Shown in pieces: positions 31,437 through 35,990 of a stretch of 64,000 bases of DNA. A program made the translations under genes and the position numbers. The number at the start of each line of letters is the position of its first letter. Position 1 is the first letter of the stretch. Below the pieces are notes generated by a model. It ran no database searches. It had not been told where the DNA came from and saw only the letters and a list, made by a program, of their open reading frames with translations. The DNA lies in NCBI GenBank assembly GCA_964291285.2, contig OZ219788.1, positions 732,973 to 796,972 on the forward strand, read 5' to 3'. The DNA comes from Alphaproteobacteria bacterium (GTDB lineage Bacteria; Pseudomonadota; Alphaproteobacteria; Bin95).

Positions 31437-32222
31437 TCAGACAATGGCGGCGCCGCCGCAGACATTGATGACCTGCCCCGTGACATAGGATGCCGCCCGG
31501 CTGGCGAGGAAGACCGCGACCGAACCGATCTCGTCCGGATCGCCGATGCGCCTGAGCGGCAGCGCGTTGTTGACGCCCTCCAGCCGCACCGGGTCCGTCC
31601 ACAGCGCCTTGGCGAAATCGGTCTTGATGAGGCCCGGCGCAATGGCATTGGCGCGGATGTTCTTCGGTCCGTATTCTACGGCGATATTCCGCGCGATCTG
31701 GTGCTCGGCCACCTTCGAGATCGCGTAGGCCCCGAGCGTGGTGTTGCCCTTCAGGCCCGCAATCGAAGCGATGATGATGATCGATCCCCCGCCGGCGGTT
31801 TCCATATGGGGCAGGGCGAGCATGCACAGCCAGTGGGTGGAGCGGATATTCGTCTCCATGATCTTGTCGAACGCCGAGTCCGGGATCCCGGCAATCGGCC
31901 CGTAATAGGGGTTGGCGGCCGCGTTGGGCACCGCGATGGTCAGCTTGCCCCACCGGTCCACCGCGCAATCGACCAGCTTCTGCAGCTGGTCCTTGTGGCC
32001 GACATGGGCCGGACAGGAGACCGCTTCCGCCCCGTTTCGCGCCCATTTTTCGTTGATTTCGGCGGTTACTGCATCGCAAACATCCGCCTTGCGCGAGGAG
32101 ACCACGACATGCGCGCCGGCCTCCGCCAGGCGGCAGGCGATTGCCTTGCCGATGCCCTTTGTGGAGCCCGTGACGACGGCGACCTCACCCGAGAGATCGA
32201 ACAGCGAATCGGAGTGCGACAT
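31437..32222 (-). CDS. SDR family oxidoreductase
   Basis: TGSTKGIG, NAA, YAISK, NAIAPGLIKT motifs. Confidence 0.93.
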   Translation of the reverse strand: MSHSDSLFDLSGEVAVVTGSTKGIGKAIACRLAEAGAHVVVSSRKADVCDAVTAEINEKWARNGAEAVSCPAHVGHKDQLQKLVDCAVDRWGKLTIAVPNAAANPYYGPIAGIPDSAFDKIMETNIRSTHWLCMLALPHMETAGGGSIIIIASIAGLKGNTTLGAYAISKVAEHQIARNIAVEYGPKNIRANAIAPGLIKTDFAKALWTDPVRLEGVNNALPLRRIGDPDEIGSVAVFLASRAASYVTGQVINVCGGAAIV

Positions 32223-32390
32223 GGAGATACGCCCGTTTCCTCGTTAATTTTTGCCTGCGGGCCGGTTATGGCTTGTCGAAGTCCGCGACACAACCGGTCA
32301 AGTCAGGGCGAATTAATTGTCTGCCTTTGGGCCATGTTGAGGTGGGGTCCGGGGTGGCTATTTTTTTCTTGATATGGCAGTGTGCCGGTC

Positions 32391-34178
32391 ATGGCGAGGT
32401 TTCTGTTTGCGGGTGTTTGGGTTGATCTTCGCGCGGTCACGGTGCGCCCGACCTGGGGGGCACGGGAGCACCGGCGCTGGGACGATTTGGTAGCGGCGCA
32501 CCACTATCTGCGGTTCCACGGCATCATCGGCAAGGGTCTGCGCCATGTCGCGGTTCATGGCGAGGCCTGGCTTGCCCTGGTTGGCTGGCAGCCTGGAGCG
32601 TTCAAGGTGGGAGCGCGGGACCGCTGGATCGGGTGGTCGGCGGAGCAGCAGTTCCGTCGCCTGCATCTGGTTGCCAACAACTCGCGCTTTGTCATCCTGA
32701 CGCCTGAGCGGGTTCCCAACCTTGCCTCGCGGGTGCTGGGGCTGAGCGTGCGGCGGCTGTCGCAGGACCTGCGGGCGGCGCATGGCTATCCGGCTGTTGT
32801 GGCGGAGACGTTTGTGGACGTCTCGCGCTTCGCCGGCACCTGCTACCGCGCGGCCAACTGGCGCTCTTTGGGTCTGACGCGCGGCTTTGCCCGCGAGCCC
32901 GGAGGGGTGGCGCGCTGGCGTCACCACGGCCAGCCCAAGGAGGTCTTCGTGTTCGAACTGACACACGGCGCCCCCGAGGCGCTGAGCCATCCCGAGATAC
33001 CGGCAGACTGGAACGCTGAGCAGCACACCGAGCCGATGGCGGCGCCCCGGCTGCGCAGCCTGTTCGAGTGTTTGGGCGAGGTGCCCGAATACCGCCATGC
33101 CCGGGGCAAGCGCTATGCGCTCACCACCATTCTGACGCTGGCCGTTGCCGCCCGGCTTGCCGGATACCGGGGTGTGAACGCCTTCGCCCAGTTCGCCGCC
33201 CTGCTCTCCCAGAAGCAACTCAAGGCGGTGGGCGCCTTCTGGAGCCCATCCAGGCAGTGCTACACGCCGCCGGCGGTCACCACCTTCCACAACATCCTCG
33301 CCGCCCTGCCGCCACAGACCCTGGACAATGCCATCGGCCAGTGGGCCGGACAGCACAGCAGTGCGCACGCGCCTGTGGCCATGGACGGAAAGGATTTGCG
33401 CGGTGCCTCGAAGCAGAGCGAAGACCGGCGCAGGAGGATGGTCGCTGCGGTGGCGCATGACACCGGCGTGGTCCTCGGGCAGGTCGAAGTCAGCTCCAAA
33501 AGCAACGAAATCCCGGCCGTGCGCGAACTCTCCAGCGGTCTCGACCTCACAGGCCGGATCGTCACCATCGATGCGATGCACGCCCAGCACGAGACCGCGC
33601 GTTGCCTGCTCGAACGCCGTGCCGACTACGTGGTCAGCGCGGTGAAGGGCAACCAGCAGACCATCCTCGAAGACCTCAAGGCGATCGACTTCAGCGATGC
33701 GCCCTGGCACGAAACCGTCGACAAGGGCCATGGTCGCATTGAGCGCCGACGCTGCGCCGTCGTCGACCTCTGCGCTGCCGAGTGGGACGGCTACGCCCAC
33801 CTTCACGGGCGCCGCCAGGCAATGCGCATGGAACGCGAGCGCAAGATGCTCAAAACCGGCAAGCGCAGCATCGAGGTCACCTGGAGCCTGACGTCGCTTG
33901 GCGCAGAGCGAGCCGGCCCCAAGGAGCTTCTCGATCTGGTGCGCAACCACTGGCACATTGAGAACCGTGTGCACTATGTGCGTGACTTCACCTATGACGA
34001 AGACCGTTGCCGGGCATATGTGCGCCACCTGCCCGGAAATCTGGCCTGCTTGAGCAACGCGGCCATCGCTATCGTGCGCTGCGACGGACGCTTCCGATAT
34101 GTACCCGAGGCCAACCGGCACTACGCCGCCCGCGCCCAAGAGGCCCTCGACGCGATTATGATCGCGCCCAGAGGCTGA
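32391..34178 (+). CDS. ISAs1 transposase with N-terminal DUF4338 (DruA-like) domain
   Basis: N-terminal HHYL, RDRWIGW, NNSRF, PNLASRVL, ETFVD...GTCYRAANW; C-terminal DGKDLRG, KSNEIPA, TIDAMHAQ, VKGNQ, HGRIERR, HWHIEN, YDED; start uncertain (32382 or 32391). Confidence 0.9.
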   Translation: MARFLFAGVWVDLRAVTVRPTWGAREHRRWDDLVAAHHYLRFHGIIGKGLRHVAVHGEAWLALVGWQPGAFKVGARDRWIGWSAEQQFRRLHLVANNSRFVILTPERVPNLASRVLGLSVRRLSQDLRAAHGYPAVVAETFVDVSRFAGTCYRAANWRSLGLTRGFAREPGGVARWRHHGQPKEVFVFELTHGAPEALSHPEIPADWNAEQHTEPMAAPRLRSLFECLGEVPEYRHARGKRYALTTILTLAVAARLAGYRGVNAFAQFAALLSQKQLKAVGAFWSPSRQCYTPPAVTTFHNILAALPPQTLDNAIGQWAGQHSSAHAPVAMDGKDLRGASKQSEDRRRRMVAAVAHDTGVVLGQVEVSSKSNEIPAVRELSSGLDLTGRIVTIDAMHAQHETARCLLERRADYVVSAVKGNQQTILEDLKAIDFSDAPWHETVDKGHGRIERRRCAVVDLCAAEWDGYAHLHGRRQAMRMERERKMLKTGKRSIEVTWSLTSLGAERAGPKELLDLVRNHWHIENRVHYVRDFTYDEDRCRAYVRHLPGNLACLSNAAIAIVRCDGRFRYVPEANRHYAARAQEALDAIMIAPRG

Positions 34179-34315
34179 TACCCCACCCCCCACCGCAATA
34201 CAGGCTCGGGCCGAAGAACGGCGCAGCAAAACAACTGCGCCCGTCGAGGACGAAAACACTGGACCGCGGCATCAAGAAACCACCATGACGGCGGCCAGAA
34301 ACGTCTGGGGTTCCC

Positions 34316-34731
34316 CAAAACCTTCATTGTCGGGCGGGTCGGCCACCCCGTATCATGAAAACAGGTGCCGGCCGCGCGGGCGGGACTTCGGGCTTTTACG
34401 GGGTTGCCTACCGGTCAGGGTCCGCAAGACGGGCGCCGCAGATGGCGAGTATCGGACGCCTCGGGAGCAGTGCTTTGGCGGGGAGGTTTTTTTTGCGCCC
34501 GATCCCCAACAATTTTCACGGCAAAACCTTCATTGTCGGGCGGGTCGGCCACCCCGTATCATGAAAACAGGTGCCGGCCGCGCGGGCGGGACTTCGGGCT
34601 TTTACGGGGTTGCCTACCGGTCAGGGTCCGCAAGACGGGCGCCGCAGATGGCGAGTATCGGACGCCTCGGGAGCAGTGCTTTGGCGGGGAGGTTTTTTTT
34701 GCGCCCGATCCCCAACAATTTTCACGGCAAA
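34316..34731. repeat. Perfect 206-bp tandem duplication inside the IS
   Basis: 34316-34525 matches 34522-34731; CAAA microhomology at junctions. Confidence 0.92.
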
Positions 34732-34805
34732 CACCGGCAGCCAGACCGACATCACTCAGACAAAGCCCGCGGTTCGACTAAAAATTTTCCCTGCCGGTCA
34801 AGTCC

Positions 34806-35990
34806 TTGCGCGCCTATTTCCGTTTCATCGCCGCGAACGCGCCGTTCCTCGGGTTCGGAGTCCTGCTGGCCTGTTTTTCGAGCTTCGGGCAGACCTTCTA
34901 TATCGGGCTGTTCGGCGCCTCGATCCGCGCCGAATTCGCGCTCGACCATGCCGGGTTCGGGTCGCTTTACATGGCGGGCACGCTCGTCAGCGGGTTCGCC
35001 TTCGCCTTCGCCGGGCGCGCGATCGACCGCATTGCGCTTCGCCGCTACGCGGCCTTCGCCCTCGCGGGCCTTGCCGGTGCCTGCGCGCTCATGGCGAGTG
35101 CGGCCGGCGCGATCCTGTTGACGGTAGCACTATGCGGGTTGCGCTTTTTCGGCCAAGGGCTTGTCACCCATACCGCGCACACGGCGACGGCGCGGCATTT
35201 CGAGGGGGACCGCGGCAAGGCGCTGAGCATCGTCATGCTGGGCCATCCGCTGGGCGAGGCCCTGCTGCCGCCGGTCGCCGTGGCGGCGGCGGCGTGGCTC
35301 GGGTGGCGCGAAGTCTGGTGGGCTGCCTCGATCCTGCTGATCGTCGCGATCCTGCCGTCGGCCATGCTGCTGCTTCCCAGGATGCCGCCTCCGGCCCGCT
35401 CCGCGTCCGCACGCGCCGGGGCCTGGAGCATGCTGTTCCGCGACCGGCGGTTCCTGCTGACCCTGCCGGCGGTGCTGGTGCCAGCCTTCGTGTCCACGGG
35501 ATTCGCCTTTCACATCGCGCCGCTGGCCGCCGAACGGAGCTGGGACATGAAGCTCGTGGCCGCCGCATTCAGCGCCTTCGCGGTCGTCAAGGTCGCGACG
35601 TCGCTCGCCATGGGCCCCGCAATCGACCGCTTCGGCGCGCGCGCCCTGTTGCCGGCATTGTTGCTGCCGCTGACCGCCGCGTGCCTCACACTGTCAGCGG
35701 GCGCGGCGCCCTGGATCGCGTTCCTTTTCATGGCCTTTCTAGGCATGTCGGGCGGCGTGACGCAGACCCTGCTGGGCGCCATCTGGGCGGAGGTTTACGG
35801 CGTCGGCCACCTGGGCGCGATCCGCTCGGTCTATTTCGTGCTGATGGTGTTCTCGAGCGCGCTCGCCCCGGCTGCATTCGGGCGCGCCATCGATGCCGGC
35901 GCCGGCCTTGCCGAGATCGGCCTAGCCTGCGCCGCCGTCATGGTCGGCGCCAAGCTGTTGCTGCTTGCCGGCGGCCTCAACCGCCGGTGA
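34806..35990 (+). CDS. MFS transporter
   Basis: SSFGQT, GRAIDRI, LRFFGQG, AEVYGVGHLGAIRS motifs; TTG start 2 bp after the IS target duplication. Confidence 0.88.
   Translation: MRAYFRFIAANAPFLGFGVLLACFSSFGQTFYIGLFGASIRAEFALDHAGFGSLYMAGTLVSGFAFAFAGRAIDRIALRRYAAFALAGLAGACALMASAAGAILLTVALCGLRFFGQGLVTHTAHTATARHFEGDRGKALSIVMLGHPLGEALLPPVAVAAAAWLGWREVWWAASILLIVAILPSAMLLLPRMPPPARSASARAGAWSMLFRDRRFLLTLPAVLVPAFVSTGFAFHIAPLAAERSWDMKLVAAAFSAFAVVKVATSLAMGPAIDRFGARALLPALLLPLTAACLTLSAGAAPWIAFLFMAFLGMSGGVTQTLLGAIWAEVYGVGHLGAIRSVYFVLMVFSSALAPAAFGRAIDAGAGLAEIGLACAAVMVGAKLLLLAGGLNRR

Follow-up and report, generated by a model that had tools for sequence, protein, structure and literature searches.

We report that a stretch of alphaproteobacterial DNA of 64,000 nucleotides (hereafter the window) carries an intact ISAs1-family insertion sequence whose transposase is composed of two modules on a flexible linker, an N-terminal GNAT domain followed by a complete ISAs1 DDE transposase. 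The closest characterised relative of this GNAT domain, as judged from a predicted structure and from profile comparisons, is the Mom protein of phage Mu, and the most likely function of the domain would be that of a transposase-tethered nucleic-acid acyl- or aminoacyl-transferase. The domain is more conserved than the transposase core, keeps company with three unrelated transposase families and is present 24 times in this one genome, always on an insertion sequence.

The element has an SDR gene on one side and an MFS transporter gene on the other; its features are collected in Table 1. The left junction reads CCGGTCAAGT/CAGGGCGAATT... and the right junction ...AAATTTTCCCTG/CCGGTCAAGT (the slash marks the element boundary), and the 10-mer CCGGTCAAGT has two exact occurrences in the 64-kb window where 0.16 would be expected. 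The inverted repeats are imperfect, with the left end matching the reverse complement of the right end at 13 of 18 positions, a match reached by only 5e-5 of random window positions, while the tips are identical in all five bases (CAGGG). The ISAs1 family is defined in ISfinder by CAGGG termini, short imperfect inverted repeats and direct repeats of 8-10 bp. A preliminary description of this DNA had claimed an intact ISAs1 element with CAGGG ends, an exact 10-bp target duplication and one open reading frame, and the sequence confirms all of this. The extent given there was right as to the ends, since eight copies in the genome match positions 1-2490 of the element over the full length, seven of them with 100% identity and the eighth with 99.8%; what it missed is that 411 bp inside the element are an independent nested repeat, present as a dimer. 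The copy census that it had proposed returned 12 near-identical copies in the genome, and the 595-aa reading frame is intact in all 12. Intact target duplications were found at six copies (10 bp in five, 9 bp in one), five further copies have flanks exchanged among them in the pattern expected from recombination between insertion sequences, and for one copy the flanks had no match. This ISAs1-family element is active and generates target duplications of 9-10 bp. A megablast search of the plasmid collection with the core of the insertion sequence gave no match.

The 411-bp insert is a dimer of a 206-nt repeat which is unrelated to the element and was acquired by the window copy within its 3' non-coding region; it is missing from three of the 12 copies, and one copy carries a single repeat unit. 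The repeat also stands alone at about 20 places in the genome with 92-97% identity, in some cases within duplicated flanks, and is present in four of 12 other genomes of the genus. Its copies are preceded by ...AAAC and end in ...CACGGCAA; the motif CATGAC is found on both sides of the G010 copies and not of the G000 copies, and neither a terminal inverted repeat nor a consistent target duplication was established among the copies compared. A scan of positions 34100-34900 against Rfam at E<=1 identified no family, and single-sequence folds of the 206-nt unit showed no extra stability over shuffled sequences (z 0.70 and 0.17). The consensus fold of the repeat is better on the + strand (-48.0 versus -37.4 kcal/mol, with seven versus two compensated pairs), a difference which is not decisive.

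Table 1. Features of the insertion sequence, with positions numbered within the window.
Feature	Position	Strand	Remarks
Whole insertion sequence	32304..34793	+	2,490 bp = 2,079-bp core + 411-bp nested repeat dimer
Target-site duplication, left copy, 10 bp, CCGGTCAAGT	32294..32303	.	flanks element
Target-site duplication, right copy	34794..34803	.	flanks element
Left terminal inverted repeat, CAGGG tip	32304..32321	+	comparison with right end
Right terminal inverted repeat	34776..34793	-	comparison with left end
Transposase gene, 595 aa from ATG	32391..34178	+	database protein P0001 100% identical; Pfam and NCBIfam matches
Predicted N-terminal Mom-like GNAT domain (Pfam DruA/DUF4338), aa 1-205	32391..33005	+	Pfam, AF2 model, Mom structural match, conservation
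Flexible linker between GNAT domain and transposase, aa 206-222, low confidence	33006..33056	+	full-length AF2 model
DDE_Tnp_1_assoc, usual ISAs1 N-terminal region	33066..33347	+	aa 229-322 (598-aa numbering), E 1.7e-14
DDE catalytic domain	33375..34019	+	PF01609; NF033564 aa 250-564
Element's own 3' non-coding DNA before nested repeat	34179..34315	+	identical in repeat-free copy up to ...CCCCAAAAC
Nested 206-nt genomic repeat, unit 1	34316..34521	+	exact tandem
Nested 206-nt genomic repeat, unit 2	34522..34727	+	exact tandem; last base(s) common to element, hence insert of 411 bp

The uninterrupted frame of the transposase gene spans positions 32382-34178, which gives a protein of 598 aa from an in-frame GTG at 32382 or of 595 aa from the ATG at 32391. 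The protein matches the Pfam family DruA (PF14236) at aa 36-169 with 70.2-73.6 bits against a cut-off of 27, then DDE_Tnp_1_assoc at aa 229-322 and DDE_Tnp_1 at aa 332-546, and it matches the NCBIfam ISAs1 equivalog NF033564 with 211.6 bits against a cut-off of 70, aa 250-564 corresponding to model positions 1-313 of 314. The preliminary description had proposed an HMM search for these three Pfam families, all of which were found, and had read a frame of about 595 aa with six DUF4338 motifs ahead of an ISAs1 DDE transposase; all six motifs are present in the translation. Its statement that ordinary ISAs1 transposases are without the domain holds within the same genome, where classical ISAs1 transposases lacking it occur at seven full loci and one partial locus. 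Residues D332, D394 and E524 (595-aa numbering) are candidates for the DDE triad by sequence; D332 never varies among 62 homologues, and conservation there reaches at least 90% for both D394 and E524. In the full-length AF2 model (pTM 0.59) residues 210-218 of the linker have a pLDDT below 50. An antisense reading frame (32358-34259, 633 aa) and frames crossing the repeat units had no Pfam family and were treated as high-GC artefacts.

The AF2 model of aa 1-222 has a GNAT fold (pLDDT 92.7), as does Mom, which is the best structural match of the domain by two methods. A Foldseek search of the PDB placed Mom (8bv8) first with an E value of 1.3e-7, followed by other GNATs, among them NAT10 and TmcA, which are cytidine acetyltransferases, and VIA-align gave Mom a Z score of 15.0 (rmsd 3.8 Å, 170 residues aligned) versus 12.8 for the next entry. 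The identity between Mu Mom and the N-terminal domain is about 14-17%. As hhalign gave a weak result (E 0.07) when the domain profile was compared with Mu Mom as a single sequence, an alignment of nine phage Mom homologues was built, and profile-profile comparison with this alignment gave an E value of 4.6e-5 and a probability of 68% over 131 columns. The Pfam family for Mom (PF25680) was matched at E<=0.01 by eight of 92 relatives of the domain, the best with 28.1 bits against a cut-off of 27.1; the window protein itself did not match PF25680 even at E<=10, and a sequence search of the PDB with the domain profile returned nothing below E 0.8. The structure prediction and the comparison with Mu Mom, both proposed beforehand, thus gave a confident GNAT model with Mom ranked first, and the assignment of the domain to a Mom-related DUF4338/GNAT type is sustained by PF14236, by the predicted fold and by Mom being the nearest solved structure.

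Mu Mom (PDB 8BV8; PF25680) is a Gly-tRNA(Gly)-dependent N6-adenine DNA aminoacyltransferase. Its active site is composed of H58, Y59, R111, S124, D149, R151 and Y159, of which R111, S124 and R151 are essential, according to the Mom paper (PMC13219725). In sequence and profile alignments five of these seven positions are identical in the domain, H38, Y39, S113, D143 and Y152 corresponding to H58, Y59, S124, D149 and Y159, and Mom residues N121 and G156 are identical in it as well. Across the 92 relatives, which are 35-85% identical to the query, the five residues are retained in 90, 86, 87, 87 and 91 sequences, respectively (93-99%), and the wider set H38, Y39, R76, D77, R99, S113, E139, D143 and Y152 is 93-100% conserved. 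Relative to Mom R111 and R151, the conserved residues R99 and R146 are shifted by one position or align in a way which depends on where gaps are set; an equivalence of R111 with R99 and of R151 with R146 by spacing was dropped, as the profile alignment did not support an exact match. Among 62 full-length homologues 33 columns are invariant, 24 of them in the GNAT domain and nine in the transposase, and the GNAT domain is more conserved than the DDE core.

The domain, a putative transferase, is in our view probably catalytically active. The preliminary description had named the absence of a DUF4338/GNAT fold and unconserved catalytic residues as observations that would speak against its reading; since the fold was matched and the catalytic-type residues are conserved across relatives, neither was made. 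It is hardly probable that the domain is catalytically dead, or of no importance as an enzyme, and has a structural role instead, in the binding of DNA or of the target, in transpososome multimerisation or in the recruitment of a host factor. The equivalents of the two essential arginines of Mom are insecurely aligned, and the loss of Mom-like residues from the Druantia DruA that was examined (see below) suggests that the fold can serve without them, but the conservation of nine polar residues at 93-100% agrees better with an active site than with a binding surface, and the residues coincide with the catalytic set of Mom.

The Pfam name of the domain refers to DruA of the Druantia defence system, and the preliminary description had framed it accordingly as possibly defence-related. 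PF14236 and an RD..IGW block are common to type I DruA and to the domain, and hhalign of the domain with a bona fide DruA gave an E value of 1.7e-5; the insertion sequence protein matches only profile positions 67-220 of 297. The PADLOC DruA model (PDLC00002) found 0 families at E<=0.01 when compared with this protein, versus an E value of 4e-198 for genuine DruA, and no Druantia partner genes (druB-E) are present in the flanks of the gene, where the neighbours are those encoding the SDR and the MFS transporter. A Druantia DruA is expected to share an operon with these genes, one of which encodes the large helicase DruE. The one genuine DruA examined (G037, at a locus also with DruD and DruE1) is without equivalents of HY, R99, S113 and D143. 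Because genuine DruA is without the Mom-like residues and the PADLOC DruA model was not matched, "Mom-like" fits the domain better than "defence-related", and the Druantia framing is weak.

The fusion proved to be widespread, with PF14236 carried by 114 of the 120 best full-length homologues; such fusion proteins are already common in databases, where NCBI labels the homologues "ISAs1 family transposase". The domain itself was found in 6,136 representative clusters at E<=0.001 and, in a sample of 100 further genera of the class, in five. Its partnership with IS66 and Tn5-like transposases had escaped the preliminary description: IS66-family and Tn5/IS4-like transposases carry the PF14236 domain with the same conserved motifs, while the DDE family differs in each. 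The domain is N-terminal in the ISAs1 and Tn5-like fusions, in the latter with an extra wHTH-like leader, and C-terminal in the IS66 fusions. This genome also contains an IS66-type element of 3.2 kb in 12 copies, in which the DruA-family ORF is separate; here and at seven of eight loci in other genomes this ORF is directly downstream of the IS66 transposase gene and overlaps its end. All 24 PF14236 matches of the genome are inside copies of either the ISAs1 fusion or the IS66-type repeat. Since the domain is a protein of its own in the IS66-type element, it need not be physically tethered to a transposase. Between IS66 elements the accessory ORF is 79-92% identical while the transposase is 48-81% identical, which speaks for a function connected with the element.

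These data also bear on whether the domain is selfish cargo with a role in defence or counter-defence apart from transposition, for instance bulk Mom-like protection of host or plasmid DNA from restriction, or Druantia-like immunity, a reading that we consider improbable. It would agree with the assignment by Pfam to the DruA family, with the separate gene in IS66 elements, with the patchy distribution among genera and with the known role of Mom in anti-restriction, as described in the Mom paper (PMC13219725). The in-frame fusion to three transposase families, conservation above that of the DDE core and the element-tied pattern in IS66 elements argue against it, as do the unmatched PADLOC model and the lack of adjoining Druantia partner genes.

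The best explanation, which we hold at just under even confidence, is that a Mom-type transferase tethered by the transposase marks a nucleic-acid base and thereby controls or protects transposition. On this view the GNAT module would be a functional enzyme that transfers acyl or aminoacyl groups by Mom-type chemistry. Carried to DNA by the transposase to which it is fused, it would modify a base at or near the element ends or at the donor or target site, leaving an element-encoded mark that would control or protect transposition. That the acceptor is DNA is a tentative assignment, and that the purpose of the domain is the control of the element's own transposition is, if anything, slightly more tentative.

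Alternatively, the substrate of a GNAT with such residues could be a protein, a tRNA or a small molecule. An active enzyme with an acceptor other than DNA (the transposase, an aminoacyl-tRNA, or a host protein of the nucleoid or of replication), or else a sensor of charged tRNA or acyl-CoA, would couple transposition to the metabolic or translational state of the cell, and we regard this as rather unlikely. The Foldseek and VIA-align neighbours after Mom are mostly protein or small-molecule N-acetyltransferases (NatF, RimI, Ard1 and SpeG among them), but Mom is first by both methods, 2.2 Z units over the next entry, and the five active-site residues which it has in common with the domain are, to our knowledge, not found in typical protein acetyltransferases. 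Fusion to DNA-binding transposases of three families moreover puts the domain on DNA. The HTH-like insertion of Mom (aa 175-209), deletion of which abolishes Mom activity according to the Mom paper (PMC13219725), is absent from the domain: it is a gap in all eight transposase-associated domains aligned with MAFFT, and the model of the domain has a short beta-hairpin at aa 166-178 in its place. The same paper, from 2026, cites GNATs that act on aminoacyl-tRNA, TacT and AtaT among them, puts forward the view that Mom defines a new category of DNA-modifying GNATs which use charged tRNA, and notes that prediction of the substrate from structure was not possible (PMC13219725).

Returning to a base-marking transferase as our preferred explanation, a broader version of it can be put forward, which we consider speculative and rather unlikely as a whole. 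At least three DDE families (ISAs1, IS66 and Tn5/IS4-like) would have independently recruited a Mom-type nucleobase transferase that writes a hypermodified-base mark at element ends or insertion sites, the mark acting as an epigenetic switch in the timing of transposition, in target immunity or in the protection of intermediates. In that case a single lineage of DNA-directed GNATs would have given rise, as side branches, both to Mom and to the DruA of Druantia, the latter catalytically degenerate.

Bacterial transposases are generally viewed as proteins for DNA binding and DDE catalysis, and further domains with an enzymatic function are uncommon in them and for the most part lack an explanation. 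If the domain does modify DNA, it would add a new level to the ways in which transposons regulate themselves, and modified bases in bacterial genomes would have a new origin; if it is inactive or directed at protein, the element would be an ordinary member of a large and already catalogued ISAs1 subgroup. The finding would also be of relevance to annotation because the Pfam name "DruA" invites the reading of such insertion sequence proteins as defence genes. The preliminary description knew of no functional characterisation, and our literature searches, with subscription journals and the ISfinder and InterPro pages outside their scope, likewise turned up no publication on the function of DruA or on fusions of a transposase with a GNAT or DUF4338 domain.

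In comparison with known systems, the element has in common with canonical ISAs1 insertion sequences the CAGGG termini, the 9-10-bp duplications, the NCBIfam equivalog and the succession of DDE_Tnp_1_assoc and DDE_Tnp_1. It differs from them in length, family members being about 1.2-1.5 kb (ISfinder) whereas the core here has a length of 2,079 bp, and the window copy one of 2,490 bp; the surplus is the GNAT-coding region, together with the nested repeats in the window copy, and lengthens the protein at its N terminus by about 225 residues. Between the transposase part and the seven classical ISAs1 copies of the same genome the identity is only about 36%. Mom of phage Mu is the product of a stand-alone late phage gene, whereas the domain here is part of a transposase fusion, and the loop before helix 3 is similar in the two (PNLASR here, PRNSESR in Mom). 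This loop, like that of Mom, reads as being without the glycine-rich acyl-CoA motif of GNATs. Two further systems are analogues in concept. Dam methylation gates the transposition of IS10 and IS50 and is thus a mark of the kind proposed here, but Dam is a host enzyme without homology to the domain. SETMAR, a histone methyltransferase fused to a mariner transposase, combines a modifying enzyme and a transposase in one protein as this element does, but it is a domesticated eukaryotic gene and not homologous to the domain.

On the best-supported reading, the ISAs1-family element is an active insertion sequence whose transposase bears a probably functional Mom-type transferase. The preliminary description of a real, intact element holds: its coordinates are exact, and both the CAGGG/CCCTG tips and the exact 10-bp target duplication, CCGGTCAAGT, were recovered. 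This 10-mer has only two occurrences in the 64-kb window (0.16 expected), and 13 of the 18 outermost bases of the terminal inverted repeats match (chance frequency 5e-5). The uninterrupted ORF of ~595 aa was likewise found; the single open frame starts at 32382 (GTG) or 32391 (ATG, 595 aa) and stops at 34178. All three families proposed for it were detected by Pfam, i.e., DruA/DUF4338 (aa 36-169, 70.2 bits), DDE_Tnp_1_assoc and DDE_Tnp_1, and the NCBIfam ISAs1 equivalog scored 211.6 bits (cut-off 70). No Pfam family was matched by the long antisense ORF or by ORFs over the repeats. On the right (34776-34806), only 12 bp separate the end of the element from the TTG at which the downstream MFS transporter gene putatively starts, and since promoter-like sites of the nested repeat units point towards this gene, its promoter may have been replaced through the insertion.

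The host genome (6.1 Mb, five contigs, 68% GC) carries 12 copies, as established by the copy census which the preliminary description had proposed, and the 595-aa frame is intact in every one. Eight copies measure 2,490 bp, a ninth has just one repeat unit and measures 2,284 bp, and three are repeat-free, the cleanest being 2,079 bp long. Six copies are flanked by an intact duplication (10 bp in five, 9 bp in one), two on different contigs have reciprocally swapped flanks, three form a three-way cycle of exchanged flanks, and one has unmatched flanks. This is the pattern that transposition followed by recombination between copies leaves behind, and the swapped duplication halves indicate that replicons recombined through their IS copies or that the genome was rearranged internally. 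Two of the three repeat-free copies contain an IS5-type element (DUF4096 + DDE_Tnp_1) at one shared internal site near the right end, with an IS701-like (DDE_5) element additionally present in one of them; because each composite retains its own intact 10-bp duplication, the element seems to have transposed while carrying ~0.9 kb of cargo in the non-coding DNA at its 3' end. The genome also has seven full classical ISAs1-type loci, and one partial copy (C3:119672), that lack the GNAT domain, bearing out the statement that ordinary ISAs1 transposases lack DUF4338; the open frames of the seven are ~386-401 aa long and 36% identical to aa 231-564 of the window protein.

Positions of the element, its copies and related loci (G000, genome of the window; C, contig)
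Feature	Position	Strand	Remarks
Insertion sequence	32304-34793		CAGGG start, CCCTG end; sequence of both tips
Target duplication, 10-mer	32294-32303; 34794-34803		exact count
SDR gene	31437-32222	-	flank
MFS transporter gene	34806-35990	+	flank
Copies with swapped flanks	G000 C3:1398671-1401160; C2:534996-537485
Copies in three-way cycle	G000 C4:301878-304367; C1:513226-515715; C1:343435-345718
Repeat-free copies with IS5-type insert	L021, G000:C2:682500-688200; L022, G000:C3:1448700-1452600
Classical ISAs1 loci	G000 C1:948165; C3:657542; C2:1201258; C2:824282; C3:1495707; C2:1390024; C4:262596
206-nt repeat, examples	G000 C1:569245-569450; C3:1834781-1835193		second site a second tandem pair; in relatives, L025-L037
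Interrupted or split relatives	L014 (G011); L015 (G010); L016 (G007)		83%; 82%; 41% identity
IS66-type element, example	L019, G000:C3:1376500-1380200		12 copies genome-wide
Druantia type I locus	L059, G037:C1:393000-412000

The extra 411 bp of the long copies are a head-to-tail dimer (206 + 205 nt) inserted at ...CCCCAAAAC|ACCGGC.... The 206-nt repeat, whose copies are preceded by ...AAAC and end in ...CACGGCAA, occurs at ~20 other sites of this genome (92-97% identity), of which some fall inside duplicated flanks; of the further genomes searched, four of 12 from the genus have it and none of eight from other families of the class; it is a dispersed, genus-specific family of strongly conserved sequence. 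Rfam gave no match to it and single-sequence folding was unremarkable; in a consensus fold (12 copies, five genomes) the + strand was better, with more compensated pairs. Each unit contains a promoter-like TTGTCG-18-TATCAT (two sites, 0.2 expected), of which the -10-like TATCAT is conserved among copies, and by eye GNRA and UUCG-type tetraloop-like motifs and a U-run. The repeat may be mobile and small-RNA-gene-like, which we offer as a lead only.

Among the 8,000 candidates scored in a search for full-length homologues, 1,653 proteins reached E<=0.001. Of the 120 matches listed, 114 have PF14236 next to a transposase domain, and in 111 all three domains are present; the fusion proteins, from Gemmatimonadota, Acidobacteriota and one alphaproteobacterium, are named 'ISAs1 family transposase' by NCBI. 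At E<=0.001 the N-domain alone had matches in 6,136 representative clusters, and 71 representatives chosen from 150 listed (315-736 aa) all have DruA, 60 of them together with an ISAs1-type transposase domain. By sequence, the GNAT-ISAs1 fusion is common in databases, and the element adds a new member to a large ISAs1 subgroup, which is annotated there yet uncharacterised. The literature search found nothing on transposase fusions of DUF4338/GNAT, in agreement with the earlier statement that no functional characterisation was known; the sole relevant statement on DUF4338 found in print is a sentence in PMC10853773 describing it as a GNAT domain to which some DndF proteins are fused. Near-full-length relatives are present in 3 of 40 related genomes, all stop-interrupted or split, in contrast to the 12 intact copies here.

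All 24 PF14236 matches in the genome are IS-borne, 12 being the ISAs1 fusion and 12 a separate ORF of ~294 aa directly after an IS66 DDE transposase, with overlapping ends. This IS66-family element (eight copies ~99% identical, four of an 81% variant) is, at 3.2 kb, too small to also hold tnpA or tnpB. The pair recurs at seven of eight loci from other genomes, where the accessory ORF is 79-92% identical and the transposase 48-81%. Among 120 matches listed for proteins >515 aa related to this ORF, 63 join IS66 DDE to PF14236 (placed C-terminally), 43 are Tn5-type (PF14706 + PF02281) with PF14236 N-terminal, and 14 are other. The family is distributed patchily: it was present in five of the 100 other genera of the class that were sampled and in none of 14 control genomes. 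The element thereby raises the question of a Mom-like enzyme's role on three transposase families.

Within the fusion, 24 of 33 columns invariant among 62 full-length homologues fall inside the GNAT domain, and the motifs HY, SRF, PNLAS, ETFV[D/E] and G..Y.A.NW are kept in all aligned transposase-associated domains. The AF2 model of aa 1-222 (from 92 sequences) has GNAT topology at pLDDT 92.7; the full-length model (pLDDT 85.5) indicates two modules joined by a flexible linker, because its pTM is 0.59 and residues 210-218 fall under 50. The comparison with Mu Mom suggested earlier placed Mom (8bv8) first in Foldseek (E 1.3e-7) and in VIA-align (Z 15.0 over 170 residues, rmsd 3.8 A; next entry Z 12.8). 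A profile of nine phage Mom proteins matched at E 4.6e-5 (probability 68%), and 8 of 92 relatives of the domain match the Pfam Mom model directly.

The 2026 Mom paper (PMC13219725) shows that Mom uses Gly-tRNA(Gly) as donor and attaches its glycine to the N6 of adenine in dsDNA; H58, Y59, R111, S124, D149, R151 and Y159 are named there as the active site. Five of these seven align, in three separate alignments, with H38, Y39, S113, D143 and Y152 of the IS domain, each kept in 86-91 of 92 relatives, so that catalytic-type residues are conserved; a non-catalytic structural role for the domain is quite improbable. Both of Mom's arginines, however, have no confident counterpart position, and the HTH-like insertion that Mom requires is missing. 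That the domain has a protein or a tRNA as acceptor, or serves as a metabolic sensor, is rather unlikely; the Mom-type transferase of the transposase would have nucleic acid as its substrate at the transposition complex.

The proposed link to DruA and defence fared less well. The PADLOC DruA model did not match the IS protein and matched the IS66-linked ORF marginally (E 0.001), and it is improbable that the domain is defence-type cargo. One sampled genome from another genus of the class (G037) has a genuine Druantia I locus that encodes DruA (E 4e-198), DruD and DruE1, with a 951-aa ORF between DruA and DruD unmatched by PADLOC. This DruA matches the IS-domain profile at E 1.7e-5, but differs from it at the HY, R99, S113 and D143 positions; as it is without these Mom-like residues, the one DruA compared hints that Druantia DruA may be a catalytically divergent or inactive GNAT. 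Judged by this one comparison, the transposase-associated clade stands equally near to Mom and to DruA, and the active-site residues that it shares are Mom's, not DruA's.
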